DNA of 44,092 nucleotides, taken from a virus. Its lineage: Duplodnaviria; Caudoviricetes. Below the pieces are notes generated by a model, which was not told the DNA's origin, did no database searches, and worked only from the letters and a program-made list of their open reading frames with translations. Of the stretch, positions 1-38,869 are shown in pieces. The translations under genes were made by a program, and so were the position numbers. Positions within the stretch are counted from its first letter, which is position 1; each line of letters starts with the position of its first letter. The stretch covers positions 1 to 44,092 of the IMG/VR virus record IMGVR_UViG_3300032288_004906; one strand, given 5' to 3'.

Positions 1-510
1 AAGAACGCCGCCATCCGGAGCCTGAAGGAGAACGTGCCCTACACGATGTGGGCGAAAGACCCGGCAACCGGGCTGAGACTGACCCCCGGCGACGTCTGCG
101 ACTACGAGTTCATCAAGAAGGACATCCTCCAATTCTGCAAGGAGCGGACGGTCAGGCATATCGCCGCCGACCCCCACAACAGCCACTACCTCGTGCAACA
201 ACTTCAGGCCGAGGGGCTCGATGTGAGAGGATTCTCACAGTCTTTTTCGGCGATGAACGCGCCGACGAAGAATTTGGACACCACGATCGCGCAGGCCCGC
301 CTGCGGACCGGGGACAATCCAATCCTGAACTGGATGGCTGGGAATGCGGTAACGAGAGAAAACGCCGAGGGCTACATCAAGATTGCGAAGCCCAGCCCCA
401 TGTCCCCTCAGAGAGTCGACGGAATCGTGGCACTGATCATGGCCCTCGCACTGGCAAACGACGCCGAGAACTCTCCAGCCGCCGCTGAACCGGAGATCAT
501 CGTCCTATGA
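1..510 (+). CDS. terL: Terminase large subunit, C-terminal nuclease domain (5' truncated)
   Basis: Frame open from base 1; motifs IAADPHNS, GFSQSFSAMNAPTK, NPILNWMAGN and RVDGIVALIMA are typical of terminase C-termini; directly upstream of the portal. Confidence 0.92.
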   Translation, partial: KNAAIRSLKENVPYTMWAKDPATGLRLTPGDVCDYEFIKKDILQFCKERTVRHIAADPHNSHYLVQQLQAEGLDVRGFSQSFSAMNAPTKNLDTTIAQARLRTGDNPILNWMAGNAVTRENAEGYIKIAKPSPMSPQRVDGIVALIMALALANDAENSPAAAEPEIIVL

Positions 511-3500
511 GCGCCGAGGAGAGGGTCATGTCGGACATTGTCTGGACACCAGAACGCGGCCTCACCGAGACTCCGGAAGTTCGGGGGATCTCGTGGAACA
601 ACTTCCTCCTCTCCGACGAGTCATACGCGGGCCGGTGGCGGACGAGTGCCGAGGTCCGGATCACGCCTGACACGGCCCTCCAGAGCACGGTCTTCCTCGC
701 ATGCTGCCGCATCCTCGCCGAGACGGTCGCCACGCTCCCGATCCATATCTACCGACGCCTCCCCGACGGCGGCAAGGAGATCGCGAGCGACATCCCGCTC
801 TACAAGGTGCTGTCGTTCGCTCCGAACTCGTGGCAGACGAAGTACGAGTTCTTCGAGCAACTCGTGATGACGCTGTGCTGCTGGGGGAACTCGTACACGC
901 AGATCAACTCTGGCCGGTACGGCAGCGTCAGCGAACTGATCAACCTGCACCCGAGTCGGATGGACGTCGAGCGTCTGGAGAACGGGCGTCTCCGCTACTC
1001 GTACACGAACCCCGAGACCGGTCGTCTGGAGCGGTACACGCAAGACCAGATCATGCACGTCCGCTGGACGCCGGAGCCGGATGGCATCAAGGGTATGGTG
1101 CCCGTCGAGGTCGCTCGCGAGGCGATTGCACTGGCGCGGGCGTGCGAGATCCACGCGGCGAAGTTCTGGGCCAACAGTGCGAGGCCCGGGATCGTCCTCC
1201 AGACGGACGGCTCTCTGTCGGCAGAGGCGGCAGAGCGACTCCGCGACAATTGGGAGAGATTGCATCGCGGCGTCGACAAGGCGTACAAGACCGCGATCCT
1301 CACCAACGGACTGAAAGCCGAGAGCATCGGCTTCACGGCGGAGCAGTCGCAGTTCGAGTCCACGAGACGCTTCCAGTCCGAGGAGATCGCACGCGTCTTC
1401 CGGCTGCCCATGTCGCTCATTCAGGGGCAGCAGTCTGGCAACCTTGAGACGTCCGGCCGCGAGTTTGTGACCTACACGCTCATGCCGTGGCTCAAGAGGA
1501 TCGAGTCGAGCATCAGCCGCTCGCTGATCTACAACGACGACGTCTTCTTCGCCGAGTTCGACGCCCGTGCCCTGATGCGTGGCGACAGCAACAGCCGCGC
1601 CTCGTACTACTCGACGATGACGGGCCTCGGAATTTTTTCGATTAATGACTGCCGCAGGCTGGAGAACATGCCCCCGCTTGAGCATGGTGACAAGCACTTC
1701 GTCGCCATGAACATGCAGACGCTCGAAGATGCGGTGAAGCCGAAGCCGGATCCGACGGCGGCAATGATGGGCGGGCCCCCTGCCCCAGCCCAAGGCGGCG
1801 TCCCGAGTCTGCCCGAGGTTAAGAAGGGCGAGGCTCCCCGCGAGGCCGAGAAGGGTCAGGTCAGCGAGAAGAAGCCCGAGGCCCTGAAGGAGGGCGACCT
1901 CGTCACGTGGGGCGAAGGAAAGGTCGGCGAAGTGCAGCACGTGATGACGAGCGGCACTCTCGACCTGAAGAGCGGCGAGAAGGTTGAGGTCGAGCCGGGG
2001 GCTCCTGTGGCCCTTGTTCACGACGCGAGCGGAGCCGAGCACGCTGTCGCGGTGGCGAAACTCAAGAAAGAAAGCCGCGCCTTCTGCCCGACCGGAGACG
2101 GCGGAGGCGTCGACAACTCGTGCGGGTCCAAGGAGTCTGCCCCGGAGCGAGATAGGAGAATCCGAGATGAAGTGAAGTCTCTGCCGGAATCGATCAGCGC
2201 GATAAGTGCGAAAGAACTTGGGCTCGCGAACTACTCCCAATTCGTTTCGATCGGAGACTCGAAGAACTCTGACAACCTCCAGATCAAAAGCGACGATGAA
2301 CTGCGTGATGCACTCAAGGGAATGACTGGGCCGAAGGGAAGTCAGGTTCCGCAGTCCGAACTGGTTGGCGCCCATCGAGACCTAAAAGACGGACACCCCG
2401 TTGACCTTCGCATCGACATCAATGCGTTCGACAACTTTGGGACGTATGCCGTAACGGTTCACGAACACGCTGGCGGGAAGGGAGTTGGAAAGCCGATTGG
2501 ATTCGACTCGATCGTGCGGCTTGCTGGCGATGTTCGCTTCTCGTCCGACGAGAAGGTTGCAACCCAGATCGCGATGGGCAAGGGCAAGACACCGATTGCT
2601 ACAGTCAAAGGAAAGTTTGAAGCAAACCGCGACGTCCCCGGCGACATCGACTCATGGATTCCTGTTGGCTTTAATCCGAAGAAGGCTGCGTACTTCTACG
2701 ACAAGCGAACCGGACAGGAGGTCACCGGCGGGGTCGACGCCGTCAGTGTCGGGAACTCTGTCTTCGTCCGCGTCGCCACGTATGGAAAGCGGAAGGCTCA
2801 GAAGCACTATCGCAACGCCTCCTTCTGGGGCCTCGAATCGCGAGCCGACGACTGCGGCAGAGCGGACGGCGGGAAGTTCGGCCCGAAGAACACATGCGCC
2901 GCCGACGATGGCGGGGCGACCGGTGATTCCAAGCCGCCAGAAAAACTGACGCCCGACAGCATTCCGAAGGTGTCCTTCTCGAAAACGGACGATGCCGAGA
3001 CTTTTTTGGCTGCCAGAAACGAGTCGACCAGACCCGAAAACTTCTCCGACATTGATCCCGAGAGGCTGGCGAGAGCGGACAAGTTTATGTCCGAGGACGG
3101 CAAGGCCGGGTGTCTTGTCGACGAAGACGGAGACTTGGGGAACGTCTTCAACAACGGCGGCACAAAAGGCGCTGGAATGGCCGCAGTCTTGACCGCCATC
3201 GAGAGTGGCGCCCAGACACTTGATTGCTACGACGGTTTCCTCCCGGCGAGGTATGCACAGGTCGGGTTCGTCGCGACGGCGAAAATCAAGTGGAACGACG
3301 AGTACGCGCCGCCGAACTGGGACTATACTACGAGAGGCAGACCTGACGTCATCATCATGTCGTATCAGGGAGGCCCGCGAGAAACGATCCGCCAGAGGGT
3401 TGGGTCGTTCTCGATGTACGAGCCACTTCCGGACGACAGGTATGCCGATGACTTCGACGCAGCAAAAAGAACTGCAAGACTTTCGAGCCACCCTCAGCAG

Positions 3501-4016
3501 CGATCTGCTGACGTACTTCGACAAGATGATCGAGAGGGAGGGGGAGGAAGCGGTGTACTCGAAACTCGGTCACCTGAAGGCTCAGGCCGAGTACATCGAG
3601 AGCCTGTAGGCGAACTGATCGCCGAGACGCTCTCGCAGTCCGGCTCTCTTCCGAAGATCGAGGTCCGCGACATCGGCAAGGCGATTGCCTTCTACTCGTC
3701 CGAGGGCGACACGATCTACGTGTCTCCTGACGCCGACCGGCTCGACGACAATGGATGGGTGTCCCAGCCGAACCCGGTGCTGCACGAACTTGCTCACCGG
3801 CACCATCTCCTCGCAGACGCCATCTCGTACCTCGCGCCAAGATCGTTCACGGCCGAGGAGAGGAGCCTCATCGAGTCCGGCGTGTCCCGGTATGCCGCGA
3901 CCAACTCGAAGGAGTTCGTGGCTGAGGTATTGTCTGGATACTGGGCGGGCCGCGAGTTCGCTCCCGAGATCGTGGCCCTTGTTGCTTCCGTGACCAACGG
4001 GAAGGTGACGCTGTGA
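507..4016 (+). CDS. HK97-family portal protein with a ~750-aa C-terminal extension (Pro-rich linker, Tudor/SH3-like domain, unknown domain, GNAT-like domain, HExxH zincin)
   Basis: First ~410 aa carry portal motifs (VFLACCRILAETVATLP, WGNSY, LHPSRM, EEIARVFRLP, SINDCRRLENMPP); extension has two Cys tags (2070, 2835) and HELAH...YAATNSKEFVAE (from 3783). Confidence 0.93.
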   Translation: MSAEERVMSDIVWTPERGLTETPEVRGISWNNFLLSDESYAGRWRTSAEVRITPDTALQSTVFLACCRILAETVATLPIHIYRRLPDGGKEIASDIPLYKVLSFAPNSWQTKYEFFEQLVMTLCCWGNSYTQINSGRYGSVSELINLHPSRMDVERLENGRLRYSYTNPETGRLERYTQDQIMHVRWTPEPDGIKGMVPVEVAREAIALARACEIHAAKFWANSARPGIVLQTDGSLSAEAAERLRDNWERLHRGVDKAYKTAILTNGLKAESIGFTAEQSQFESTRRFQSEEIARVFRLPMSLIQGQQSGNLETSGREFVTYTLMPWLKRIESSISRSLIYNDDVFFAEFDARALMRGDSNSRASYYSTMTGLGIFSINDCRRLENMPPLEHGDKHFVAMNMQTLEDAVKPKPDPTAAMMGGPPAPAQGGVPSLPEVKKGEAPREAEKGQVSEKKPEALKEGDLVTWGEGKVGEVQHVMTSGTLDLKSGEKVEVEPGAPVALVHDASGAEHAVAVAKLKKESRAFCPTGDGGGVDNSCGSKESAPERDRRIRDEVKSLPESISAISAKELGLANYSQFVSIGDSKNSDNLQIKSDDELRDALKGMTGPKGSQVPQSELVGAHRDLKDGHPVDLRIDINAFDNFGTYAVTVHEHAGGKGVGKPIGFDSIVRLAGDVRFSSDEKVATQIAMGKGKTPIATVKGKFEANRDVPGDIDSWIPVGFNPKKAAYFYDKRTGQEVTGGVDAVSVGNSVFVRVATYGKRKAQKHYRNASFWGLESRADDCGRADGGKFGPKNTCAADDGGATGDSKPPEKLTPDSIPKVSFSKTDDAETFLAARNESTRPENFSDIDPERLARADKFMSEDGKAGCLVDEDGDLGNVFNNGGTKGAGMAAVLTAIESGAQTLDCYDGFLPARYAQVGFVATAKIKWNDEYAPPNWDYTTRGRPDVIIMSYQGGPRETIRQRVGSFSMYEPLPDDRYADDFDAAKRTARLSSHPQQRSADVLRQDDREGGGGSGVLETRSPEGSGRVHREPVGELIAETLSQSGSLPKIEVRDIGKAIAFYSSEGDTIYVSPDADRLDDNGWVSQPNPVLHELAHRHHLLADAISYLAPRSFTAEERSLIESGVSRYAATNSKEFVAEVLSGYWAGREFAPEIVALVASVTNGKVTL
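3448..3609 (+). CDS. Candidate overprinted 53-aa helical protein in the +1 frame of the portal gene
   Basis: MTSTQQKELQDFRATLSSDLLTYFDKMIEREGEEAVYSKLGHLKAQAEYIESL reads as an amphipathic helical protein while the portal frame here is linker-like; alternative ATG at 3442. Confidence 0.55.
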   Translation: MTSTQQKELQDFRATLSSDLLTYFDKMIEREGEEAVYSKLGHLKAQAEYIESL

Positions 4017-7000
4017 TTTTCCGAGAGGAAGACTTCTCTGAGGAGGAGTTCCGGAGCGTCGCCCTGCTCGTCGAGCGAAGGGCCGGAGACAACTGCGGTC
4101 GCGACGAGGATGGCAAGTTCGCTCCGAAGAACGATTGCCAAGAGGGCGACGGTGGGACAGCGCAGAAGGCTCCCAAGCAGAAGAAGTCCAAGGAAGATGC
4201 TCCAACCGTCTCCCGGCCACCAGCCGGAGAGCGTGTTTCTTCACTCACCACGCGTTCTCTTTTCGATGGCTCTGAAAAACTTGAACTGCCAAAGGAGCGC
4301 GGCGCCGTCAAGGAAGAGACAATTGCCAGAGCGTTGACGCAGAGGGCAATCACCGCCCACGGCGGCACCCCGATCGACGTCGACAAGCCGATGGACGAGA
4401 CGGACGTCGATGTTCTCTCGGATGCGCTCGCCGACGACATTCAAGGGGCGTACGAGAGGTCTGGCCGACACGCGGGCTGGTACTCGCAGGACGTCGGCGA
4501 CGCGATGGATATTGCGTCACGCCTCCCGGGCAACGAGCAGATTGCGAACGACCCGATTCATAAGTTCGTTTTTGGTTTCGGGATGGGAATCCTGTCTGCG
4601 CAAAACGGCGTCGAGGACAACGCCACTTTCGCGGACGGCTTCTACAGAAACTGGCGAGAGACAGGGAGCCTTGTCGTTCCAGACGAATACAGACACGTCT
4701 TGGGTCGCGGCATCGACACGAGCCACTTCCGCACGATGCAGGAACTCGTCGACCGCAATGGGTGGGATGAGGTCATTCGGTACTTCTCCTCATCGGACAC
4801 GGTGAACGGTATCGCAGCGGACGGCAAAGTGATGCTCCCCGGGTTCGGTGGATTCAAGGTTGCGAAGGAGAGGGTCGACACGGTCGTGCCTCGTTTCGCA
4901 ATTTTTGGCCCGAAGATCGGCCCCTTCACGCACGCCATCGTCAACGGTGACTACGACCACCTTGTCATGGACAGGTGGACGATGCGGCAGGCTGGCGCAC
5001 TGACAGGGACTCTGCTGAAGGAGACTGACCCAGACAAGGTCCGTGGTCACGCCGAGAGATTGCTATCGGCGTCTTCTGGAAACAGGTCCGGCAACTCTCT
5101 TTGGTACGGGCTCCCGAAGGCAGAAGTCGTGTCCAGCCTCAAGCGAACTCTGAAGTCTGGCCGCTTTGACGAACAAGATGTCGGGTGGGAGTTCGTGAGA
5201 CGCGTTCAGTCTGCGTACGCGAATAGCGTAAATTCAGAGACAGGCGGCGGCTTCGGAGACAAGACAGAACTCAACCTCGCTGCGAACAACGCATTCAAGA
5301 GTAAGGTCGAGATGCAGTTGGCTCCCGGAAACGGGACTGTCGCAAACAACGTGCGGCAGGTGTTCGCGGAGGCGACCAGAAAAACTGGCGCGAACAATGT
5401 TCTGGAAGTTCAGGCTCTCGGATGGGTCGACACCCAGAACCTGTGGCAGACGCTTGGCTATCGCCTCAAGAAAGACCCGAACGAAAATACGTTCTCGTCG
5501 GCGTTTGCCGCTCTTCGCGACGGGAGACGAGAGCGGATCACAAGTCTCAAGGAAGAAGCAGAGAAGAAGAGACGCGGGAGGGAGGAGCGTGCTGCTGTTC
5601 CGCCCCCGCCATCCTCTGCGGACACCACACCGATCGACGTATTCGGAGGTGAGTACCAGTCGCTCTTCGACGAGGCAGTTGCGTCACGCGAGTATCAGGA
5701 GTACCTCGTCAGCGAGATTACCGCTCAAATCCGTCGGTCGCAAAACAAGGAGTCCCGCTCCGCCGACTGCGGCAGAGACGAGAGCGGCAAGTTCGGAGAC
5801 AACAACAAGTGCCAGAAGGACGGCACCGGCGTTGCCGACGACCCGATCCGCTCAGGCGGCGACGGCAACAAGGACTGGACTCGCGACGAACTCGCGAGCA
5901 GCCCGCCGTTCAGCGGCGCCGACCGACTCTCGTCACTGACGGTCGCCGCAGGCAATCAGGTCGCCAACAGACTCGAAGGCCTCGGCGTCGGCATGGACGA
6001 GGCGGCGAAGATCGTCGGCTCCGCGAAGGAAGGCGACTCGGTCTACGTACGACCTGCGGTCGAGTTCGCCGCCGACGGCGAGGACGGCGTCCTCGTGCGG
6101 ACCCGGCGGGACGTTGCTGGCGTGAAGGACGGGATGGAGTCGAATTCCGTCCTGATGAGCGTCGGCCCGCCGGGGAAGCCGGACCTTGTCCTGAAGCACC
6201 ACCTGATGAGCGTCGCGGACGCGGTCAAGAGTGACCCGGCCAAGAGACACGCCGCCGCCAGAGAGTTCTTCCGGGTCATGGCGGACAGCGTCTCCGAGGC
6301 GAGGAAGTCCGGCGTCACGAAGGTCGTGTTCAACGCCGCAGGCCGCGCCTCGCAGCCGGACGGCTTTCGCGGGTACACCATCTGGCCCCGGATGGGGTTT
6401 GACGCACCGATCCCCTACAACCTGAAGCAGAAACTGCCGGAAAGCCTCTCGCACGCGAAGACGCTGCTCGACCTGCACTCGACCCGAGAGGGCACGAACT
6501 GGTGGCGAGACAACGGCACCGACGTCGACGTCGTCCTCGACCTCGCCGACCGCAGCAGTCCGCAGAACAAGGCCTTCGACGCGTTCGTGCGGAAACTCCT
6601 CCGCGAGAGTCGCGAGTTGCCTCTCGGATCCGGTGACGAGTGGCTCTCACCCGAAGACCTTCTCAAGTTGGACGAACTCTGGGACGAGATCGACGATCAG
6701 GGCCTGTTCGACGACTACGACGGCGAGTCTCAGGATTTCTCGATTCTCGAAAGTGGAAAGAAGGAGTCACGCTCGTCCGAGTGCGGCCAAGACAACAAGG
6801 GCCGATTCTCGAAGGGCAACGACTGTGCGTCCGAGGGCGGCGCACCTCCGGCGTCCGCGTTCGGACCGCCGACAGACTTCACCGAGAGCGACCACGAGTA
6901 CAAGAAGGATGAACTCCAGAAGCGGCCTCCGTTCAAAGGCGCCGAGAAACTCGAATCTCTGGGGATGCCTGACGAGAAGCAGATGCGGGAGAACCTTACC

Positions 7001-9787
7001 CGCGAGGGGCTGTCGCTCGACGACGCCGTGACGCTGCTCTCCCCAGCCCGCGATGGCGGGCACATGGTCATCACCGTCGAGAACCCGGACGAGCAACTGT
7101 TCGTGCCGCCTCCGCCCGGGACGCCGAGGCCGTTCGTGACGTCGATCGCGGCGAAGGAGATCGACGGCGGTTGGATCAGCAGCGTCACGTCCATGGCGAG
7201 GGACAGCGAAGGCCTCATCCTGAACTACGAGGGATTTCTGGCCGACGACTCTGTGCAGGCGAGTTCGACCGTGACGGCCGCTCGCGAGATGATGTCGAGC
7301 GTCCTCAAGAGTCTCGATGCCGCCGAGTCGATGGGCGTGGCGAAGGTCGTGCTCAACGCCGCTGGTGACGCGAAGAGCACGGCGTTCAAGGGATACCGCA
7401 TCTGGCCGAAGTTCGGCTTCGACGGCGTTATCCCGAAGACCGAGAAGTTCATGCCGCTCTACATCCGGCTCAGGAACCAAGACCTGTCGCCGCGTGCTCA
7501 GGAGGAGAAGAAGCAGGGGCGGCTGACGATTCAGGCTCTCTACGAGACAAAGTTCGGGCAGCAAATGTGGGAGCGGCACGGCGGCGAACTGGCGATGTCG
7601 CTCCGCCCGGGATCGGACACACCCGGATGGCAGCGGTTCAAGAAGATGCAGTCCCGGATCGGTCGTCTGGCCGAGGACCGCAGCCTGACTCTGACGGACG
7701 ACGTCTTCAGCGAGGAGACGCTCGCGTACCTCGACGAGGTGTGGGCGGCAATCCGTGGCGAAGTGGAGCAACGCGCGGCAGACTGCGGGCGAGACGAAAG
7801 CGGCCGGTTCGGATCCGGAAACAAGTGCGCTTCTGCGTCCGGCGAAACGCAGGACGGCAAGTGGGAGATCGAGCCCAATAAGGACGGGACGACATTTCGG
7901 ATCGACGCCGAACCAGCGACGCACGTTGTTCGCCTGAAGGGCGACGACGGCAAGGTCAAGGCGTTCGTGCTGGGGACAGTCGTTGACGACTCATCGCCGC
8001 CGAAGTTCTACGTCGATTACTCTCATGTTGTCGAGAAAGAGCGAGGCAAGGGCGTCTACACGGGACTCCTCAAGTCACTCAGCGATCAGTTCACGGTCGT
8101 CTCAGACTCGCCGCCGAATCTGGCCCTTGAAGCAGAGAAGGCGTACAAGAGACTCGGCGCAGAGAAGGATCCCTACAGTGGCGGCTACATCCTTCACAAA
8201 AAGCCCACCGGCGACTCCCGGGCCTTCTGCGCAACCGGCGAAGGCGGAGGCGTCGACAATTCGTGCGGAGCCGAACCAGCCGCGACACAGCAGCCACCAG
8301 ACACACCGGCATTTAAATCGTGGTTCGGAGAGAGCAAGGTAGTCGACGGTGACGGGAAGCCGCTTGTCGTCTATCACGGAACAGCAAAGCCGTTCACCAC
8401 GTTCGATAAAAAGTTCTCCGCTCAGGGGCTGTTCTGGTTCTCAAGCGACAAAGACAAGATCCTGAGGGGTGAGTCTGGAGCCGTCTCTGGAAAGTCGTTG
8501 ATTCCAGTATTCCTGTCTGCGAAGAAACTTGCCGGGTGGGACGAGTACGACAAATACACGCTCGGTCAGTTGCGAGATCAGGGATACGACGGCATCAAAC
8601 TGGATGATGACTACGTTGTGTTCGAGCCGTCGCAGATCAAGTCTGCCGTAAAGAACAGCGGCGGATACAACCCCAAAAGCAAGAGCATTCACCGCGCCTT
8701 CTGCCCAACCGGCGACGGCGGCGGCATCGACAACTCGTGCGGCGCCAATCCGAAGATGGCCGCAGACAAGGACAGCGTCGGCAGCGGCTCGACGAAGTGG
8801 GGCGGAAAGACTGAGCCGTGGGGCCGTTCGGGCGAGACTGAAATCTGGACACCAGACAAGCCGCTCTTCCCCGGGGCGGAGAATCTTCCCAGCATCAAGA
8901 TCGAGCGACCCAGTGACATCCGCAGTCGTCTTGAGGACAGTCTCAAGGTCACCATCTCGGACGCCGTCTTGGCGTCCGGCGCCGTGATCGCGACTCCAGA
9001 CTCCGCGAAGATCACGCAGCCACGGCTGATCATCACGCCGGACATGGCGAGCGACGGCGTTACAGTGGCGTGGACATGCACAGGCGTCGCCACTGGGAAA
9101 GGATTCAGCAAGGAAGAGGCCGAGTTCGCCGACCCGAAGGGGTCCGTCGTCCGGGCTGCCGAGGCATCGCGGTCGCTCCGGCGGACGGCGAGCGGAACTG
9201 TCCTTCACATGGACGGCTTCTTCATTCACCCGGACTTTCGTGGCAAGGGCATCGCTCTGGAGGCCGTGTCTCGCTCCGTGTCTTCGCCAGTCGTGAGACT
9301 TGAGATGTCTGCGGAGCGGTACGATGCCAGCCATCCCAACCGGCACATGACTGGATACAGGGTGTGGCCCCGCTACGGCTACGACGCGAGGATCAGCGAC
9401 GTGGCCGCTGCCATCCGTGGAGAGATCCCGGCAGAGTTTGCGAAGGCCAAGACTCTTCTCGACATCTACGCAACGCCGGGGGGGCCAGAGTGGTGGGCCG
9501 AGAACGGGAAGTCGATCGGGCTCACGTTCGACATGCGACCACGCAGCAGGAGCCGCGAAATTCTGCTACAATTGCAGGACAAATCGCGATCCAAGCGAAG
9601 GAGCCTTCCCGTGAGCAAGCCAACGGACCGACTCGGTTCCGACTCCGACTACGACGACTCGATCGACGAGGTGTGGGCCGAGATCCAGCAGAAGGGTCTT
9701 TCTGGTCAGTCCCCATCTCAGGAAGACTGGGACCAGTGGGCGAAGGAAGCCAAGGATGGCGATTCCGGAAAAGTACAGCCACATTGA
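4013..9787 (+). CDS. Giant polyvalent head-associated protein (1924 aa): HhH glycosylase-like domain, three paralogous GNAT-like domains, one classical GNAT, ADP-ribosyltransferase-like domain
   Basis: Six Cys tags split it into six domains; motifs GWY...GPKIGPF...MDRW; GYxxWPxxG[FY]D three times; ERGKGVY; FKSWFGESKVVDGDGKPLVVYHGT...GYDGI...VFEPSQIKS; lies between portal and protease. Confidence 0.85.
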   Translation: MIFREEDFSEEEFRSVALLVERRAGDNCGRDEDGKFAPKNDCQEGDGGTAQKAPKQKKSKEDAPTVSRPPAGERVSSLTTRSLFDGSEKLELPKERGAVKEETIARALTQRAITAHGGTPIDVDKPMDETDVDVLSDALADDIQGAYERSGRHAGWYSQDVGDAMDIASRLPGNEQIANDPIHKFVFGFGMGILSAQNGVEDNATFADGFYRNWRETGSLVVPDEYRHVLGRGIDTSHFRTMQELVDRNGWDEVIRYFSSSDTVNGIAADGKVMLPGFGGFKVAKERVDTVVPRFAIFGPKIGPFTHAIVNGDYDHLVMDRWTMRQAGALTGTLLKETDPDKVRGHAERLLSASSGNRSGNSLWYGLPKAEVVSSLKRTLKSGRFDEQDVGWEFVRRVQSAYANSVNSETGGGFGDKTELNLAANNAFKSKVEMQLAPGNGTVANNVRQVFAEATRKTGANNVLEVQALGWVDTQNLWQTLGYRLKKDPNENTFSSAFAALRDGRRERITSLKEEAEKKRRGREERAAVPPPPSSADTTPIDVFGGEYQSLFDEAVASREYQEYLVSEITAQIRRSQNKESRSADCGRDESGKFGDNNKCQKDGTGVADDPIRSGGDGNKDWTRDELASSPPFSGADRLSSLTVAAGNQVANRLEGLGVGMDEAAKIVGSAKEGDSVYVRPAVEFAADGEDGVLVRTRRDVAGVKDGMESNSVLMSVGPPGKPDLVLKHHLMSVADAVKSDPAKRHAAAREFFRVMADSVSEARKSGVTKVVFNAAGRASQPDGFRGYTIWPRMGFDAPIPYNLKQKLPESLSHAKTLLDLHSTREGTNWWRDNGTDVDVVLDLADRSSPQNKAFDAFVRKLLRESRELPLGSGDEWLSPEDLLKLDELWDEIDDQGLFDDYDGESQDFSILESGKKESRSSECGQDNKGRFSKGNDCASEGGAPPASAFGPPTDFTESDHEYKKDELQKRPPFKGAEKLESLGMPDEKQMRENLTREGLSLDDAVTLLSPARDGGHMVITVENPDEQLFVPPPPGTPRPFVTSIAAKEIDGGWISSVTSMARDSEGLILNYEGFLADDSVQASSTVTAAREMMSSVLKSLDAAESMGVAKVVLNAAGDAKSTAFKGYRIWPKFGFDGVIPKTEKFMPLYIRLRNQDLSPRAQEEKKQGRLTIQALYETKFGQQMWERHGGELAMSLRPGSDTPGWQRFKKMQSRIGRLAEDRSLTLTDDVFSEETLAYLDEVWAAIRGEVEQRAADCGRDESGRFGSGNKCASASGETQDGKWEIEPNKDGTTFRIDAEPATHVVRLKGDDGKVKAFVLGTVVDDSSPPKFYVDYSHVVEKERGKGVYTGLLKSLSDQFTVVSDSPPNLALEAEKAYKRLGAEKDPYSGGYILHKKPTGDSRAFCATGEGGGVDNSCGAEPAATQQPPDTPAFKSWFGESKVVDGDGKPLVVYHGTAKPFTTFDKKFSAQGLFWFSSDKDKILRGESGAVSGKSLIPVFLSAKKLAGWDEYDKYTLGQLRDQGYDGIKLDDDYVVFEPSQIKSAVKNSGGYNPKSKSIHRAFCPTGDGGGIDNSCGANPKMAADKDSVGSGSTKWGGKTEPWGRSGETEIWTPDKPLFPGAENLPSIKIERPSDIRSRLEDSLKVTISDAVLASGAVIATPDSAKITQPRLIITPDMASDGVTVAWTCTGVATGKGFSKEEAEFADPKGSVVRAAEASRSLRRTASGTVLHMDGFFIHPDFRGKGIALEAVSRSVSSPVVRLEMSAERYDASHPNRHMTGYRVWPRYGYDARISDVAAAIRGEIPAEFAKAKTLLDIYATPGGPEWWAENGKSIGLTFDMRPRSRSREILLQLQDKSRSKRRSLPVSKPTDRLGSDSDYDDSIDEVWAEIQQKGLSGQSPSQEDWDQWAKEAKDGDSGKVQPH

Positions 9788-12371
9788 TTTCACGCCGCCG
9801 TCGGGCGTCCGCCGCGAGGCCGAGTACGGCCTGAAACTCCGTCGTGAGTACGGTCGCGGCGGTACAGCCGTCGGCATCGCCCGCGCACGCGACCTGTCGA
9901 ACGGCAAGGAGTTGTCTCCGTCGACGCTCCGCCGGATGAAGGCGTACTTCGATCGCCATCAGTCAGACCAGCAGGGCGACGGATTCAATCGCGGCGACAA
10001 GGGCTGGCCGTCGAACGGGTACATCGCCGCCAAACTCTGGGGCGGCTTCCAGAGTGGCTACTCGTGGGCGAAGAAGGTCGTCGAACAGATGAACGCCGCC
10101 GACGAGGAGAGTCGCAGCCTCCGACCCAAGGGATCGACGTTCGGCATCGAGCCGCGTGTCGTCGTTGTGCATGGGCCTCCGGGCAGCGGCAAGGCCGACT
10201 ACGTGCGAGAGCACAAGGGCGAGAACGATGTCGTGTTCGAGTTCGACTCGATCATGAGGGCCCTCTCTGGCGGGCCGAAGAACGACAACCTGATCTCTTA
10301 TTGTCTGGATATTCGGAACCTTATTCTGGAAAAGTCGCTCCGCAAGCCGAAGGTCGACTGCACGTGGGTCATCGCGACGCGAGTGGACGACGATTTCCGG
10401 AGGGCTCTCGGAGACGTGCCGGTGCGGTACGTCGAAATGGAGGCCTCGAAAGACGAGTGCCTTCGTCGTGTCTCGGAAGACCCTTCAAGACAGGACGTCT
10501 TGGATGAGACGAAGGACGTGATCGAGCGGTATTTCAGCGAAAGGAGTTCGCCCGTGGCCTCGAACGTCGAACGTCGGTATCTCGGTGCGTTCTCCTCCGT
10601 CGAGCGGGCCGACCCGCAACTACTCGGCGTCGAGCGTCGGGCTGACCCGGAGACCGGCAAGACGCGGACGTACATCGTCGGGTATGCCGCCAAATTCCAG
10701 ACGGACAGTTTGCTGCTGGGAGATTTCGTCGAGCGGATCGCACCGTCGGCGTTCGAGATCGTCGAGAAGCGAGAGGACTTCGACGGCAAGCCTCTGGAGA
10801 CCCGGTGCCTGTTCAACCACAGTCCGGACCATCTCCTCGGCCGCTTCCCGAACACACTGCGAATGTGGGTCGACGAGGTCGGACTTCGGTACGAATGCCT
10901 GCTGCCAGAGTCGCGTCAAGATTTGGCTGAACTCATCGAAAGAGGCGATTTGCGTGGCTCAAGTTTCAGTTTCGTGGTCGCCGATGGCGGGGAGCGATGG
11001 TCGACCGAGAACGGCCAGTCGATCAGGACCGTGACCCGCATCAAGTCTTTGCTGGATGTTTCCCCAGTCACTTACCCGGCGTACGGCGACGCCACGGTCG
11101 CTGTTGCCAAGCGGTCCTACGAACACTTCATCGCCGAGAAGAAGCAGAAGGTCGAGACGCGTTCGTTCGTGAAGGATAAGGCTGCCTCGATCCGTGCCGA
11201 GACCGAGAAGTTCCTCGCGGAGCGGCGGGCATTCTGCCCGACTGGCGACGGCGGCGGAGTCGACAACTCGTGCGGCGCTGGTGGAGGTAGCGGTCAGGGC
11301 TCCGACGAAAAAGCGGTCTTGCAAAAAAAGGCTGTCACCTCGTCCGGTTCCGCGACCACGGGAGCCGTACTCGGCGCGACTGTCGGGTTGGTCGGAGGCC
11401 TCCCGGGGGTGCTTGTCGGGACAGCGACAGGCGCGATTCTCGGCGCAATCATTGACGCGTTCAAAACTTCCAAGCAGAAAGCCAAGAGCGAGTCTTTAAG
11501 GAAATCCATCGGCGTGTCGGACAAGCAACTTCAAGGCGTTGCCGACTCTCTCATGGGTGGAGAGAAGGTTGACGTGTCGGTGGCAGACGAGAACACGCTG
11601 ATGCTCTCTTCAGAGTCATCAGACTGGTACGCGTGGCTGTCGCCTTCGAGTCAGTTTGGCAGCAAAGAGCCGGGCGCTTCTCTGCATGTCGTCCCACCCG
11701 GCGCGGACGTTGACGTGCCGTCCATGGAAAAGGCGGCGAATGTCATGGGGGCGAAGTTCGTCTCCGTGGAGGCGTGGAGCGACGGGGACGCCAAAATGCT
11801 TGAGTCCAAGGGCTACAAGAGAATTGATGAATCGCCCGGTGGTTTCTCCATAAGCAAGGGCATCTACGAGAAGAAACTCGGAAAGTCCAAGAGGTCGGCC
11901 GAAGTCGCGAAAGAAATTCGCACCTTCCTCTCCGAGAGACGCTCCGGCGACTGCGGCCGGGACGACAGTGGCCGGTTCGGCTCCGGCAACGAATGCCAGC
12001 AGGACGGCGGCAAGTACATGGAGATGCCGAAGGGCGACAAGTCGAAGGCCCAGAAGTTCATCGACGACGCCCGTGAAGGACAACTCCGACGCGGCGGCAA
12101 GGACGGAGGCAAGTCGGACGACGGCGGCGGCGTCCAGACGTGGAGCAAGGGCGACGACTTCCCATGGACCCCAAAGCGTGTCGGCACCGACGAGGGCTAC
12201 ATCCAAGGGACGCATCCGGACGGCAGCACGACGGAGAAGTATCCGTTCAAAGGCGGGAATACCGATGAGGCGTTCCGGCTGATGCGTGAGGAGATCAAGA
12301 AGTTCGGCCGGAAGCGGTCGTCCGAGGTCGTCATCGAGACCCTCCGTTTCCTTCGCGAGAGGGCACGATGA
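9756..12371 (+). CDS. HK97-type prohead protease embedded in an 871-aa multidomain protein (N-terminal helical domain, P-loop kinase-like domain, protease, glycine-zipper domain, small C-terminal domain)
   Basis: Protease motifs IVGYAAKF, FVERIAPSAF, LFNHSPDHLLGR, GSSFSF, LDVSPVTYPAY (~10670-11085); P-loop GPPGSGK at 10173; Cys tags at 11220 and 11934. Confidence 0.9.
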   Translation: MAIPEKYSHIDFTPPSGVRREAEYGLKLRREYGRGGTAVGIARARDLSNGKELSPSTLRRMKAYFDRHQSDQQGDGFNRGDKGWPSNGYIAAKLWGGFQSGYSWAKKVVEQMNAADEESRSLRPKGSTFGIEPRVVVVHGPPGSGKADYVREHKGENDVVFEFDSIMRALSGGPKNDNLISYCLDIRNLILEKSLRKPKVDCTWVIATRVDDDFRRALGDVPVRYVEMEASKDECLRRVSEDPSRQDVLDETKDVIERYFSERSSPVASNVERRYLGAFSSVERADPQLLGVERRADPETGKTRTYIVGYAAKFQTDSLLLGDFVERIAPSAFEIVEKREDFDGKPLETRCLFNHSPDHLLGRFPNTLRMWVDEVGLRYECLLPESRQDLAELIERGDLRGSSFSFVVADGGERWSTENGQSIRTVTRIKSLLDVSPVTYPAYGDATVAVAKRSYEHFIAEKKQKVETRSFVKDKAASIRAETEKFLAERRAFCPTGDGGGVDNSCGAGGGSGQGSDEKAVLQKKAVTSSGSATTGAVLGATVGLVGGLPGVLVGTATGAILGAIIDAFKTSKQKAKSESLRKSIGVSDKQLQGVADSLMGGEKVDVSVADENTLMLSSESSDWYAWLSPSSQFGSKEPGASLHVVPPGADVDVPSMEKAANVMGAKFVSVEAWSDGDAKMLESKGYKRIDESPGGFSISKGIYEKKLGKSKRSAEVAKEIRTFLSERRSGDCGRDDSGRFGSGNECQQDGGKYMEMPKGDKSKAQKFIDDAREGQLRRGGKDGGKSDDGGGVQTWSKGDDFPWTPKRVGTDEGYIQGTHPDGSTTEKYPFKGGNTDEAFRLMREEIKKFGRKRSSEVVIETLRFLRERAR

Positions 12372-13096
12372 CAATCTCGCTGTCCACGCAGTGCAGGATC
12401 GCGAGCATCTACGCGTTCGCTGAATCCCGCAACTGCGGCACGGGATCGGGCGGTTTCCAGAAGGGAAATACGTGTGCGTCAGGCCTCATCGCGGACGCCA
12501 CCAAGGGCGCCGTGAAGGGCGCCGCCAGCGGGGCTACGATTGCAGCCGGGGCGCTGTCTCCGACGCCGCAGCACATCGCTGCCGGTGCTGGCGTCGGCGC
12601 TGCCGTCGGACTCGTGAAAGGTATCCGCGACAACCGGCTCCGGCCGACGCGGGTGCTCAAGAAGATTGAGTCGATCGGCTCGTCTGAGGAGAAGGTCGCG
12701 GCCTTGGTCGAGAAACTCGGCGGCACCCCGAAGTCGTCGGCCGACGTCACCGGAAAGAAACTTGTCCTGACCATCCGGGACAAGGAAGGCAAGAAGTCCT
12801 TCCACGTCGAGATGGATGAAGATGAGATCGTCGTCTATCCACGCAAGGCCACGGGGCAACTCAGCGGCTCCGAGATCGAGCGGGTCAAGGAGATTGCCTC
12901 CGAGGCCGCTGGCAAGACGGTCGCTGTCGTCGTGAAGGAAAACTCGAAGGCCTACTCAGCAAAACTCGTGAAGAGTGGTTTCAAGGTCGCCGCAAACGCC
13001 GCAGGCGAACTGATCGCGTCGACGGTTGTTCCTCCAGTGGCGGACACCGTCGTCGGAGACCTCATCTATGCGGCGAAAAAAGCCAGAGGACGGTAA
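12368..13096 (+). CDS. Cys-tagged glycine-zipper protein, putative head cargo
   Basis: ESR|NCGTGSGGFQKGNTC tag at 12422, then GxxxG-rich hydrophobic segments; resembles the glycine-zipper domain in the protease. Confidence 0.7.
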   Translation: MTISLSTQCRIASIYAFAESRNCGTGSGGFQKGNTCASGLIADATKGAVKGAASGATIAAGALSPTPQHIAAGAGVGAAVGLVKGIRDNRLRPTRVLKKIESIGSSEEKVAALVEKLGGTPKSSADVTGKKLVLTIRDKEGKKSFHVEMDEDEIVVYPRKATGQLSGSEIERVKEIASEAAGKTVAVVVKENSKAYSAKLVKSGFKVAANAAGELIASTVVPPVADTVVGDLIYAAKKARGR

Positions 13097-13291
13097 ATGT
13101 CTCTGTGTTCTGGGTGCAACTGCACGAAGCCCGGATGCCGTGGGCGGATGACGACTCGTTCGAGTCGCGCCAGCGGCGAGTATCAGATCCGCTATCTCAA
13201 GTGCCATCAGTGTGGGACGACGGCGAGGTCAGTGGTCACTGCGAGCAACGCTCGCTCGATCGTTCTCCGTCGAGCGACCACTCAGCCGTAG
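13097..13291 (+). CDS. Small zinc-finger protein, Ogr/Delta-like (possible late regulator)
   Basis: Cys clusters CSGCNCTKPGC and RYLKCHQCG flanking TRSSR, similar in layout to Ogr/Delta zinc fingers. Confidence 0.55.
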   Translation: MSLCSGCNCTKPGCRGRMTTRSSRASGEYQIRYLKCHQCGTTARSVVTASNARSIVLRRATTQP

Positions 13292-13310
13292 TGTTGTGTC
13301 GCACAACACT
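13290..13310. promoter_or_regulatory. Perfect inverted repeat AGTGTTGTG-tcg-CACAACACT upstream of the capsid gene
   Basis: 9-bp arms, 3-nt spacer, ~95 nt before the capsid ATG; function inferred. Confidence 0.5.
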
Positions 13311-13403
13311 GCCCTTCTTCTGGGCTGAGTCCGATTCCCTCTAGTTTGAACCTGTCGCCCGCTTGCGGCGGCTGTTCACAAACCACGCAGGGAAGCAGAA
13401 CTC

Positions 13404-14888
13404 ATGGAAGCCTCCGCCAAGATCAAGTCTCTCCTCGACGAACTGGCTGCCGTCCTCGCCGAGATGGGCGCCCTTCAGGATGAGATGCCCGCAGAGCGGG
13501 AGATGCCCGTCGCCGAGGAGATGAGCGACGAGGAGAAGGAGGAGAAGGGTTACAAGCCCGAAGAGTCCGAGGTCGAGGACACCGAGGCGATGCCGGGTGT
13601 CGACGAGGAGGACGAGGAGAAGGAGCGGAAACTCCGCTGCCTCTGCGAGCGGGCCGAGAAACTCCGCGACAAGATCAAGTTCTACGAGGGCGTGGCGGCG
13701 AAGGAACTCGAACTCCGCACCGTTCTCGACAAGGCCACTCCGGCTTCGGAAGTGGCGTCCATTCGTCCCGCCACCAAGGAGGCCCGTTCCGTGTCGATCT
13801 ACCACAACCTGCCGGGTGCTGGTCGCCTGAAGAATTTCCGTGGCGCGAACGCCGAAGAGCGTGCTTACCGTGCCGGTCAGTATTTCCGTGCCACGCTGCT
13901 CGGCGACAAGAACGCCGCTCGGTGGTGTGCTGACCACGGCGTCGAGAGCCGTGCCCAGAACGAGGGCGTCAACTCGCAGGGCGGAATTTTCGTGCAGGAC
14001 GAAGTCCTGAACGAGATCATCGTCTTGGTCGAGGAATACGGTGCGTTCCCGAAGAACGCCCGCAACGTCCAGATGAAGTCTGACACCCTCATCGTCCCCC
14101 GCCGGACCGGTGGCCTGAAGGCTTACTTCGTCGGCGAGAACACCAGCGTCACGGACAGTGATGCGTCGTGGGATCGCGTGCAACTCGTCGCCAAGAAGGT
14201 GGCGGTCGCCAACCGGATGTCGAGCGAGATTCTGGAGGACAGCGTCCTGAATCTGGCCGACTACATCACGGGCGAGGTGGCTCGCTCGCTGGCCGAGTTG
14301 ATCGACACCGTGGGCTTCGTGGGCACGGGCTCCGGGGACCACGGCGGCATCATCGGTGCTTGCACGAAGATCGTCGACGGCAACCACAACGCGTCGGTCG
14401 TGACGGCTGCCGCCGGTAACACCGGTGCCCAGACGCTCGACGTCGACGACCTGATCGCCGCCGCCGGACGGCTCCCGCTGTTCGCTCGGGCGAATGCTCG
14501 CTGGTTCTGCTCGCCCGCCGTCTTCGCGGCCAGCGTGCAGCGGCTCGGCCTCGTGAACAACGTCGGCCTCGCCGGTGGGAACACGGCTGCGAACCTCGCG
14601 GCCGGTGCCGAACTGCGGCTGCTTGGCTACCCCGTGGAGTTCGTCCACGTGATGCCCAGCACCGTCGGTGCCGACCCGGGCAAGGTGCTGTTCCTCTTCG
14701 GCGACCTGTCGATGGGCTCGATGTACGCGACTCGTCGCGGCCTCACCCTGAAGACCTCGACGGACCGCTACGCGGAACTTGACCAGACCCTGATCGTCGC
14801 CACCAGCCGCTTCGACTGCGTCACGCACGACTGCGGCGACAACTCGAAGGCTGGTCCGATCGTGGCCCTCAAGACCGCTGCTTCTTGA
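13404..14888 (+). CDS. Major capsid protein, HK97 fold, with N-terminal delta (scaffold) domain
   Basis: Acidic coiled-coil N-terminus, then VESR|AQNEGVNSQGGIFV, SSEILEDS, FVGTGSG, LLGYPV, FGDLS. Confidence 0.95.
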   Translation: MEASAKIKSLLDELAAVLAEMGALQDEMPAEREMPVAEEMSDEEKEEKGYKPEESEVEDTEAMPGVDEEDEEKERKLRCLCERAEKLRDKIKFYEGVAAKELELRTVLDKATPASEVASIRPATKEARSVSIYHNLPGAGRLKNFRGANAEERAYRAGQYFRATLLGDKNAARWCADHGVESRAQNEGVNSQGGIFVQDEVLNEIIVLVEEYGAFPKNARNVQMKSDTLIVPRRTGGLKAYFVGENTSVTDSDASWDRVQLVAKKVAVANRMSSEILEDSVLNLADYITGEVARSLAELIDTVGFVGTGSGDHGGIIGACTKIVDGNHNASVVTAAAGNTGAQTLDVDDLIAAAGRLPLFARANARWFCSPAVFAASVQRLGLVNNVGLAGGNTAANLAAGAELRLLGYPVEFVHVMPSTVGADPGKVLFLFGDLSMGSMYATRRGLTLKTSTDRYAELDQTLIVATSRFDCVTHDCGDNSKAGPIVALKTAAS

Positions 14889-15418: not shown

Positions 15419-16180
15419 ATGAGAGTTCTGGTCGGGAACGTCGAGCATGACGTCAAGATCGCGGCTGCGATGAGCATGCCGCGACTTGCGTTTACTGACA
15501 ATTTCTTCTGCACGCTGTCAGCGTTTACGCATCACGGCATCCACGTCACCAAGGGCACGGGCGCCTTCTGGGACCAGACGATGACGCGGATCCTCACCGA
15601 ACTCTGCAAGGAGGAGGATGGGAACCAGTTCATCGTCACGGCCGACTACGACAGCGTCTACGAGCCCGACTGCCTGACGAGGCTCGTGGCGGCGATGCTG
15701 ATCAGCGGCGTCGACGCGTTGGCTCCGCTCCAGATGAAGCGTGACGACAAGATGCTGATGTTCACGCCCGCTGGCCTCGGCGGGAAGGGCGCTCAGGAGG
15801 TCACGCTCCCGAATGAGTGGTGGGAGGAGCCAGCCCAGCCCGTGGACACGATGCACTTCGGCCTGACCATCCTTCGCGCATCTGCCCTTCGCCGGATGCC
15901 GAAGCCGTGGTTCCTTGGGATCCCCAGCGAGGACGGCGACTGGGGCGAGTTCCGAAAAGACCCGGACATCTATTTCTGGCACAAGTGGCGAGAGTGCGGG
16001 AACACGATGGCCGTCTGCCCTCAGGTGGCGATCGGCCATGCGGAACTCGTCATCACGTGGCCCGACCAGCGGCTGAAGGCCATCCATCAGTACCCGACGC
16101 ACTACTGGAATGCCGGAGGCAAGCGTCCTCCGGAGGCGTGGGGTTCAGAGAATCACGCAGAGAGGTCTCGCAAATGTTGA
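15419..16180 (+). CDS. GT-A fold (family 2-like) glycosyltransferase
   Basis: DxD motif (TADYD), HFGLTIL...PKPWF, DPDIYFW, VAIGH. Confidence 0.7.
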   Translation: MRVLVGNVEHDVKIAAAMSMPRLAFTDNFFCTLSAFTHHGIHVTKGTGAFWDQTMTRILTELCKEEDGNQFIVTADYDSVYEPDCLTRLVAAMLISGVDALAPLQMKRDDKMLMFTPAGLGGKGAQEVTLPNEWWEEPAQPVDTMHFGLTILRASALRRMPKPWFLGIPSEDGDWGEFRKDPDIYFWHKWRECGNTMAVCPQVAIGHAELVITWPDQRLKAIHQYPTHYWNAGGKRPPEAWGSENHAERSRKC

Positions 16181-25546: not shown

Positions 25547-25911
25547 GTTTCGGGCCGACGCCAAACAGTCGCGGTGCCGGGAACTCGGGCGAGCAACTCG
25601 TCCAGTTTCGCCTCTCCGACGCGCAGCGGATCAGCAACGCTGTGACTTGGGTTGAAAGCCACCGCAGGGACAGGAAGCCGAGTTGGCTCCCAAGGGCGGC
25701 AGGGTCGAGTGTCGCCGCGACGGACAACGGCATCTACCTCGGCACGTTCACCGGACCATGGGCAAAAGGCGGGACTAAGAACGTGTACGTCGGCACAGCC
25801 TCGTATTCGGTCGTGAACCACTTTGCCACCGTCGACCTGTCTGGCAAGTGCGCGTTTGCGAGGATTGTGAACGGAGGCTCGTACATTCTCATCGCTGCGG
25901 AGTGCCAGTAG
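25543..25911 (+). CDS. Hypothetical tail-region protein
   Basis: Coupled GTGA start; ends LIAAECQ. Confidence 0.55.
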   Translation: MSFGPTPNSRGAGNSGEQLVQFRLSDAQRISNAVTWVESHRRDRKPSWLPRAAGSSVAATDNGIYLGTFTGPWAKGGTKNVYVGTASYSVVNHFATVDLSGKCAFARIVNGGSYILIAAECQ

Positions 25912-31418: not shown

Positions 31419-31666
31419 AGAAAAAGGATTTTGCTTCGCTGGTCGACATGCACATCGAGTTCCGGTCGACCGGGTACAGGTCATGGTTTGATTCGCTCGA
31501 CGAGGACGCCAAGTCGCAGTTGTCGGCGATCAAGGACCGTTTCCGCAGCGGTGGCTACGGAGACGCGAGCAAGGCGGCTGTCGCGAGGGCGGTAGCATCA
31601 GCGGCGAAGGAACAAGGATGGAAAACCGCAGGCATACAGGCGGTGATCGCATGGCTCGGAAAATAG
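31415..31666 (+). CDS. Hypothetical protein
   Basis: Probable GTGA-coupled start; helical 83 aa. Confidence 0.55.
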   Translation: MKKKDFASLVDMHIEFRSTGYRSWFDSLDEDAKSQLSAIKDRFRSGGYGDASKAAVARAVASAAKEQGWKTAGIQAVIAWLGK

Positions 31667-32796: not shown

Positions 32797-33212
32797 CTCT
32801 GGAGAACTCGGCGAACCAGACGGTCACGTCCTTCCCTGACGAACTCGACGGCGACGGCGACGACGACTACCTGAACATCGACACGGCGAACCCGCTGCCC
32901 GGTGCGTTCGCCGTGGGTGGGTCGCCGGAGTTTCTGCAAATCCTCGACGAGATCCGTGCCCTGCACATCGCGAAGAGCAAGGACTACGGCGTCGACGAAG
33001 ACCCACTCGCCAACATCCGTGCCGGGGCCGACCTGATTGGCATCGACGACTGGAAGGCCTGCCTCATCAGGATCGCTGACAAGGTCACGAGGCTGAGGAC
33101 GTTCTGCCACAAGGGCTACGTCCAGTTCGACGGAATCGACGACACACTGAAAGACCTCGCAGCCTATTCCGTGTTAGCCCTAGTTTTCTATCGTGCAAAA
33201 CACCAACCTTGA
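32691..33212 (+). CDS. Nucleotide-modification-associated (DUF1599/Nmad1-like) protein
   Basis: KSKDYG...PLANIR...RIADKVTRL...DTLKDLAAYSVL; ATG at 32691 after AGGAGAAGGA. Confidence 0.7.
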   Translation: MPAEGFITNIEATNQSIREIVEARNKKRYCCTDTVTLENSANQTVTSFPDELDGDGDDDYLNIDTANPLPGAFAVGGSPEFLQILDEIRALHIAKSKDYGVDEDPLANIRAGADLIGIDDWKACLIRIADKVTRLRTFCHKGYVQFDGIDDTLKDLAAYSVLALVFYRAKHQP

Positions 33213-33681: not shown

Positions 33682-33717
33682 CACACCTGCGGGGCGGGAG
33701 CGGCTCGCCGACCTCGC

Positions 33718-34617: not shown

Positions 34618-34742
34618 CTAAGTGCATCTCCAGTGCTGTAGGGGGAGTATGCACATCCGTGTGAGGTAGTCGTCCTGAGTCAGGGGGGTAATCAAATTTT
34701 TTTCTTCTCGCCACACCTCGCGGTGGCCGCACAATCCATACC

Positions 34743-34783
34743 TGCGTAACGCCCGCCAGTTTTACGAGGTCGGGCGTTACGCA
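34743..34783. terminator. 13-bp perfect inverted repeat (hairpin) between the 34791 gene and the integrase
   Basis: TGCGTAACGCCCG / CGGGCGTTACGCA; no clear U-tract, so terminator function is uncertain. Confidence 0.4.
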
Positions 34784-34790
34784 CGGTTGG

Positions 34791-35087: not shown

Positions 35088-35178
35088 CTGACTCTTCCTC
35101 CTGTAGTGACTGCGCCGGTCCGGCAATCGTTCCGGCTGCCCACAAGAATGGCACCCCCGCCATTCGACTGTCAAACGT

Positions 35179-35211: not shown

Positions 35212-35244
35212 TAGGATCGAAGTACGGACAGTAGGAGCGGGAAA

Positions 35245-38868: not shown

Positions 38869-38869
38869 A

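Follow-up and report, generated by a model that had tools for sequence, protein, structure and literature searches.

A two-cysteine tag behind a protease-matched predicted cut site marks modules of phage head polyproteins

We analysed the viral record IMGVR_UViG_3300032288_004906 (Duplodnaviria; Caudoviricetes), a 44-kb linear virus that CheckV rates as 45% complete, over its whole length of 44,092 nucleotides, which we refer to as the window. Its head genes (507-14888) encode an HK97-type portal of 1169 aa, a 1924-aa open reading frame (ORF), an S78 prohead protease of 871 aa, a 242-aa ORF and an HK97 capsid protein. The first four of these genes appear to encode chains of add-on modules joined by a composite junction, in which a predicted protease site with arginine is followed by a short tag with two cysteines. 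In unrelated phages the residue of the predicted site changes to match the local protease, and the modules are therefore likely to be cut inside the capsid and likely to be delivered to the host. On balance we lean towards the whole of this reading, namely that protease-cut, tag-led modules are kept in the head and ejected with the DNA.

The window carries 11 such tags in the portal, the 1924-aa ORF, the protease and the 242-aa ORF: four of type A (C.TG.GGG.DNSC), six of type B (CG....G.F...N.C) and one hybrid, all at the positions reported in a first-pass annotation made from the letters without database searches. The strict A and B patterns had no further match in the six frames of the window, and eight extra matches to a looser pattern (C-x9-14-N-x-C) all fell outside the genes' frames. 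The five head proteins, with 4,700 aa in total, contained the pattern C.{9,13}N.C 11 times compared to 0.03 expected, a count reached in none of 300 shuffles, and the pattern was absent from the 7,658 aa of the 24 other window ORFs. The annotation had likewise noted no tags in tail or accessory proteins, and the relatives described below agree. Four window tags matched no Pfam or PHROG profile, which is a weak test with queries this short, and no NCBIfam tag family was matched when whole proteins were searched.

Overlooked in the first-pass annotation was an arginine that stands 1-4 residues before each of the 11 tags, in nine cases as E-x-R, once as D-S-R and once as I-H-R. The same kind of site was found where there is no tag: the capsid protein has ESR/AQNEG at aa 181-184, directly before the Pfam capsid domain, and the protease core is flanked by ERR/A and ETR/S (the slash marks a predicted cut). 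E.R[AS] occurred 19 times in the head proteins compared to 4.0±1.9 in shuffles, and twice in the other window genes compared to 6.2 expected. Family searches confirmed the identities of the portal, the protease (Peptidase_S78/TIGR01543) and the HK97 capsid protein, and the head is of HK97 type in having a portal, an S78 protease with both of its motifs and a capsid protein with an N-terminal scaffold domain. The two protease motifs, which we take to supply the catalytic His and Ser, were present in 35/35 related cores, and the capsid boundary was kept as [ED]-x-R/[AV], a predicted cut identified by pattern, in 31/32 capsid proteins. In HK97 the scaffold is removed at K103/S104 (PMC10275583); since this is a cut at a basic residue, an Arg-directed S78 protease is plausible. 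Cleavage of the polyproteins into tag-led modules by the S78 protease after E-x-R is therefore something we regard as likely, and the predicted pieces, strongly inferred from the positions of the sites, would be 16-61 kDa. Release by the prohead protease had already been proposed in the first-pass annotation, and a protease-matched predicted site before every tag supports it.

Three DNA-pattern scans of IMG/VR gave 361 loci including the window, and the 234 loci of at least 2.5 kb were analysed, shorter ones being left out, as 89 groups defined by shared 60-mers. Among them, the residue three before the first Cys of tag A (Cys-3) tracked the protease of the same group. With a window-type S78 protease Cys-3 was R in 91/91 tags (27 groups), and with a DUF2213 protease it was N in 77/77 tags (23 groups). 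Divergent S78 proteases were accompanied by K in 16 and R in 2 of 18 tags (4 groups), and Mu-like_Pro by F and Y in 2/2 tags (1 group). Two further presumed proteases, here called K2 and E, belong to no Pfam family and were assigned by position only; Cys-3 was K in 3/3 tags (2 groups) with the former and E in 6/6 tags (2 groups) with the latter. For 47 tags in 20 groups no protease lay within the fetched DNA. By eye, the class residue was also seen at capsid/scaffold boundaries, for example EQK/AL, ILN/G and IQE/S.

Three controls bear on whether this match merely reflects shared descent. Tag-free capsid proteins of the R class were enriched for E.R[ASG] (99 vs 20.4±4.8) and not for the Asn motif (84 vs 100), and DUF2213 protease/scaffold proteins, some of which carry tags, had the Asn motif 256 times vs 102±9.5 and E.R[ASG] 15 times vs 18; neither motif was enriched in downstream proteins. 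Furthermore, a profile built from 46 type-A tags matched 1,458 of 1.84 billion protein representatives at E≤0.001, and in the 145 proteins with at least two tags among the best 150 of these representatives, Cys-3 was uniform within 137 (500 shuffles, 54.6±3.6, maximum 66). Positions -4, -5 and -6 were uniform in only 6, 14 and 5 of the same 145 proteins. Finally, both tag-A subtypes were found with R, K, N, L, F and Y. Taken together, tag-free enrichment, within-protein uniformity and subtype crossing argue against mere ancestry.

The distribution of the tags points to the head in the relatives as well. In the 32 groups with a window-type capsid, 184 tags lay between the terminase and capsid genes, with none from the capsid gene onwards (47,793 aa) and none upstream (9,091 aa); in the 15 groups of the DUF6260-capsid class the corresponding counts were 49, 0 and 0. 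Confinement to the head module, as the first-pass annotation had it, thus holds in the window and in its IMG/VR relatives. That annotation had also suggested a profile search, which we ran for type A, and most of the carriers scanned were of head type: a domain scan of 36 of the best 150 found MuF in 19, a portal in one and S78 in one (21/36), and no tail family, the remainder being four with ART only, one with HNH and ten without a family. Tag A was also found in heads with Mu-type, lambda-type and Phage_portal_3 portals. Searches of cultured phages by tblastn with the short tags, too insensitive to show absence, gave two chance matches for tag A, both within primase genes, and nothing for tag B, an HPR-type tag or one Cys-free tag. 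A scan of GTDB genomes for tag A returned 12 stretches in 11 loci, several of them short bin contigs or unconvincing, and therefore no host could be assigned.

All features of the system in the window lie on the plus strand. The portal (507..4016; core aa 63-387) has three add-on modules. The first, P1, has no identity and follows a tag A at aa 527 (2085..2123; predicted cut ESR/AF after nt 2078), the second, P2, matches phrog_2563 and follows a tag B at aa 783 (2853..2897; ESR/A after nt 2843), and the third is an untagged zincin with HELAH at aa 1093. The 1924-aa polyprotein (4013..9787) consists of a 23-aa leader and six tag-led modules, B1 to B6. Its first four tags are of type B, at aa 28 (4094..4138; predicted cut ERR/A after nt 4081), aa 586 (5768..5812; ESR/S after nt 5758), aa 924 (6782..6826; ESR/S after nt 6772) and aa 1258 (7784..7828; EQR/A after nt 7774). 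The last two are of type A, at aa 1406 (8228..8266; DSR/AF after nt 8221) and aa 1564 (8702..8740; IHR/AF after nt 8695, the weakest site).

In the protease (9756..12371; core aa 301-458, LFNH at 352 and GSSFSF at 401), an N-domain and an AAA domain, both untagged, precede the core, and two tag-led modules follow it, the first with a Gly zipper. These modules begin at a tag A at aa 494 (11235..11273; predicted cut ERR/AF after nt 11228) and a tag B at aa 733 (11952..11996; ERR/S after nt 11942). The 242-aa ORF (12368..13096) has a 21-aa leader ending in ESR, the hybrid tag at aa 23 (12434..12475; predicted cut ESR/N after nt 12430), a Gly zipper and a small domain. The gene for the HK97 major capsid protein (13404..14888) lies beyond the range of the first-pass annotation and is counted as part of the system; its product is tagless, with a predicted scaffold boundary ESR/A after nt 13952.

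The arrangement of site, tag, flexible linker and domain thus occurs 11 times in the window. Among the relatives, 435 complete tag-led segments (median 261 aa) gave 150 BLAST families, with 116 singletons. One cargo family may be led by tag A or by tag B, and modules of the window's 1924-aa ORF are placed on the portal in some relatives. The 25 residues behind the tag had a hydrophobic fraction of 0.15 vs 0.27. Two AlphaFold models were folded from about residue 50 and about residue 38 on, without the tag, and had low pLDDT over the tags (residues 1-49 and 1-32); because other rows of the alignments are tagless, this tells us that the domains fold without the tag, not that the tag is disordered. 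The modular polyproteins that the first-pass annotation had described, with tags outside folded domains, are supported.

Several of the modules resemble known enzyme domains. B5 is ART-PolyVal (E 1.3e-18), B4 and B6 matched GNAT weakly (E 0.005 and 0.011), and the whole 1924-aa protein matched it at E 9e-6. B2, B3 and B6 (5813-6781, 6827-7783 and 8741-9784) are GNAT-like paralogues that share an invariant G-Y-x-x-W-P-x-x-G-F-D and end in an acidic, Trp-containing helix. B1 is helical in its model and has an invariant GPK-G...D-W--R in 14 sequences, a putative helix-hairpin-helix glycosylase motif (HhH-GPD), and its Atlas neighbour cluster carries DUF7178 in 20% of members at 0.96. No significant match was obtained in PDB sequence searches with three cargo alignments, B1 included, no match was found for B1 among shorter proteins, and no usable match for P1 in the Atlas. 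Gly zippers were found behind the protease tag A and behind the hybrid tag. The first-pass annotation had called these modules effectors; their modular nature stands, and an effector function is suggested by the domain types. In tagged relatives we also observed Acb1-like, RelA/SpoT, topoisomerase IB and histidine-phosphatase domains (L248:8636-13081; L021:3797-4633 and 4830-9809; L312:6529-9867). A Nudix domain was found in tagged relatives as well.

With respect to the predicted cut the tag belongs to the part that is retained, and a separate element lies upstream of the cut. Behind the protease core an amphipathic helix ending in FLAERR (11163..11228) is a candidate encapsidation signal, and a copy of the same helix type, ETLRFLRERAR, forms the C-terminal end of the protease (12327..12368). 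This helix, with its ending F-L-x-x-R, recurs before protease tags, in the window ahead of the second one, and at the C-terminal end; in relatives, short tag-less proteases end in it, and it resembles leaders of stand-alone ORFs (RYASLLAFAQSR). The tail of the HK97 protease is reportedly its encapsidation signal, a finding ascribed to Duda et al. in 2013. We propose that packaging is probably by covalent fusion to the portal or protease together with an amphipathic helix upstream of the cut.

A form of the tag without cysteines, [YF]DPxQPRDxxG[KR][FW], contains the type-B core RDxxG[KR][FW] and occupies the same position as the Cys tags. It was preceded by R in 4/4 loci with an S78 match and by N in 1/2 with a DUF2213 match. 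This weakens the disulfide loop or metal site of the first-pass annotation as a necessary feature; the tag is probably a Gly-turn hairpin that is stapled by the cysteine pair and exists also without cysteines. When one Cys-free tag was compared with a phage database, 14/14 weak matches (E 2-8) were post-portal genes, belonging to cluster H mycobacteriophages and Nocardia phage P3.1. In gp10 of the cultured Mycobacterium phage Damien (L657:5995-6768) and three post-portal genes of P3.1 (L658:5249-5479, 5481-5819 and 5992-6702), all encoding small basic proteins, the core RDxxGR[FW] stands at the natural protein N-terminus, and in Damien gp10 a Gly zipper follows it. That natural proteins begin with the Cys-free core is consistent with a role played at a free N-terminus once cleavage has occurred. 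Post-portal proteins of phage Patience are virion proteins by mass spectrometry (PMC4324244, Table 1). The most likely role of the retained tag, which we put forward with middling confidence, is to act after cleavage, in retention or ejection.

Further observations were made on these N-termini. Damien gp10, which is very basic, is annotated as 'capsid maturation protease', which its sequence does not suggest. Patience gp11, 13, 14, 15, 17 and 18 (L659:1696-5471), virion proteins according to the part of PMC4324244 cited above, begin with xxRxAALKKAQxAS, mostly followed by a Gly-rich hydrophobic stretch; this is possibly a second tag type. In loci L266, L304, L311 and L037, other junction tags follow a class-specific site, N/ANPxG[CI]NQ[YF] and F/EWDESKHPR...GGQF.

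Among the alternatives, the one that survives best, though we consider it unlikely, has the polyproteins cut and the tag acting before cleavage as a packaging signal that binds the scaffold or the capsid interior. Lacking any portal, protease or MuF core, the 1924-aa and 242-aa ORFs must be targeted in some way, and tags stand close to the N-terminus of both; the Cys-free core at the natural N-termini of small post-portal genes would also fit such a signal. Yet tags are kept on modules fused to the portal or protease, which need no signal, and tag A is found with four or more portal families and with capsid types that are unrelated and differ in their scaffolds. Upstream of the cut, moreover, there are leaders and helices particular to each class, and in T4 the targeting part is the leader that is removed (PMC9026906). 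The upstream helix is thus a better candidate for the packaging signal that the first-pass annotation had seen in the tag.

More doubtful still is a tag that serves as a prime-side cleavage aid, or as an insulator keeping the junction unfolded and accessible, with no later role. The spacing to the site is fixed (Cys-3 in type A), the P2' residue is hydrophobic, F in most, and a Gly/Ser-rich linker follows the tag, all of which would suit this role, but a single tag serves alongside proteases that differ in family and specificity, no tag accompanies the sites of the capsid and of the protease core, and the Cys-free core occurs at natural N-termini.

Synonymous identity between tags was 63/93 vs a codon-usage expectation of 43.4 for type A and 96/137 vs 76.6 for type B, and the longest exact DNA run between tags was 8-17 nt; this fits descent by copying. 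A dedicated recombination site in the type-A DNA, which the first-pass annotation had considered as a means of cargo swapping, is unsupported, since the identity is modestly above expectation and similar for type B. The least probable alternative is that the polyproteins remain uncut and full-length, with site and tag a copied linker, possibly aiding module shuffling by recombination, and the upstream residue a matter of ancestry: the synonymous identity is indeed above expectation and some polyvalent virion proteins are packaged uncut, as is N4 vRNAP (PMC5512222), but capsid and protease proteins that carry no tag are enriched, class by class, for the same site, within a protein -3 is fixed while -4 to -6 are free, both tag subtypes cross protease classes, and the longest exact DNA runs are 8-17 nt.

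A number of points weigh against our preferred reading of protease-cut, tag-led and ejected modules. The phage is uncultured, and cleavage, virion location and ejection are all predictions from its sequence. The 89 groups share kinship, so that related loci are not independent lineages or samples; the 'proteases' of the E and K2 classes have no Pfam family, and part of the DUF2213 and Mu-like matches are below Pfam curated cut-offs. Two window sites lack Glu at P3 (DSR, IHR). The first-pass annotation had each tag starting a module, which holds, and had implied that every add-on has a tag, which does not: in homologues the protease N-domain (0/30), the AAA domain (0/15) and the portal C-terminal zincin (0/12) were never tagged, and the tag is therefore not needed by every add-on. 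Of the Cys-free form, the DUF2213 locus L521 lacks the expected Asn and most of 53 rows have no detectable protease, and Patience gp18, a virion-proven homologue of Damien gp10, has a different N-terminal motif. Finally, the absence of basic residues from type A speaks against DNA binding as a shared role, and the tag has no known partner.

With these points in mind, the preferred reading would run as follows. Precursors may enter the procapsid because they are fused to the portal or protease, or because an amphipathic helix ahead of the first cut takes them there. Inside it the S78 protease would, as we strongly infer, cut after E-x-R, the kind of site that also marks the scaffold boundary of the capsid protein. 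The tag, which would then stand at a new N-terminus, may act as a delivery handle, either for retention during DNA packaging or for threading through portal and tail, and the freed modules would be ejected into the host with the DNA. Judging by their domain types, the ART, GNAT-like, glycosylase-like and Gly-zipper modules may then act on the host early in infection.

This system resembles the internal proteins of T4. There, internal proteins and Alt, an ADP-ribosyltransferase, are processed by gp21 in the prohead and then ejected (PMC9026906), and giant phages have an equivalent in SPN3US gp245 (PMC10052503). Common to T4 IPI-III/Alt with CTS and gp21 and to the window is head cargo with a short motif tied to a prohead-protease site. 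By the same T4 source, however, the CTS leader, 10 residues at the N-terminus, is removed, whereas the tag is on the retained side and repeated inside polyproteins; gp21 cuts after Glu, whereas the protease here is of the HK97-type S78 family with a predicted Arg site. Unlike the CTS, tagged modules are also fused to portal and protease. With neither a removed leader as its conserved element nor a Glu-cutting protease the window does not belong to the CTS/gp21 system, although the part of the CTS could be taken by the leader or helix that each class has ahead of the cut.

Polyvalent proteins are a second point of comparison. They are predicted to be packaged and injected, and release by embedded peptidases has been proposed (Iyer et al. 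2017, PMC5512222; 2022, PMC9503650), and they are found fused to MuF, a portal or a capsid-processing peptidase. Like them, the window proteins are head-associated and multi-domain, with ART-PolyVal, GNAT and zincin domains; the 2-15 disparate domains of polyvalent proteins are seen here as six modules in the 1924-aa ORF, placed in the terminase-portal head module, and on these features the window proteins count as polyvalent. In those accounts, supplementary files excepted and as far as their available sections go, no junction motif, retained tag or matching of junction to protease is described. HK97 and D3, with their delta domain and gp4 S78 protease, share the order of portal, protease and capsid and an N-terminal scaffold removed at a basic residue (K103/S104; PMC10275583), with about 60-90 proteases per prohead (PMC10275583, PMC12749128); for their portal and protease no cargo modules or tags are described in the available sections, in contrast to the 1169-aa portal and 871-aa protease found here. 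The post-portal proteins of cluster H/U mycobacteriophages and P3.1 share the Cys-free core, but are single small proteins, not polyproteins. A full-text literature search, with most subscription papers outside its coverage, found no description of a tag-plus-cleavage system, in line with the first-pass annotation, which knew of none. We conclude that this is a real, widespread and apparently undescribed form of what is probably protease-processed head cargo, which works like T4 CTS/gp21 and is not a member of it.

Contigs of the probable source sequencing run span the region with no variant letters. In a second run a close relative is found along the cores of portal, protease and capsid protein. 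We saw no joint at tags that would indicate a module swap, and no holder of RNA data was listed among the sequencing runs. Elsewhere in the window, a 253-aa ORF behind the capsid decoration gene (15419-16180) is kept in 22 groups without a Pfam match, and we presume it to be glycosyltransferase-like from a motif. The 1629-aa ORF 3' of the tail genes (25848-30737) is tagless and matches nothing in Pfam or PHROG; of the 24 ORFs outside the head genes that were checked, it alone matches E[SRQKT]R[AS], once, at aa 856. Genes for a metallophosphoesterase, DUF1599, a tyrosine integrase (minus strand), a histone-deacetylase-family protein and a GDP-mannose 4,6-dehydratase lie at 31618-43414, and several short direct-repeat families (30-40 nt) at 37518-42402 are common to small right-arm genes.

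Outside T4 and the giant phages, there is little understanding of the way in which siphophage-type heads take up protein cargo and eject it. The junction described here is a single readable mark of module boundaries in polyvalent proteins, and from it follow cutting rules that can be tested for several families of prohead protease, Asn for DUF2213 among them. Candidate early effectors can be listed from it as well (tagged relatives have ART, Acb1-like, RelA/SpoT, Nudix and topoisomerase IB domains), and a role of the retained N-terminal tag in ejection is now testable, including in cultured actinophages with the Cys-free form. Tentatively, we suggest a portable delivery code across unrelated tailed phages, in which an N-terminal hairpin tag of about 15 residues may select the pieces that are held and ejected; as tentatively, the tag, Cys-stapled or Cys-free, would be unmasked by whichever prohead protease the phage has. 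If this is true, site and tag would predict the injected anti-defence arsenal of thousands of phages from sequence alone, and likewise where prohead proteases yet to be characterised cut, as after Asn for DUF2213.

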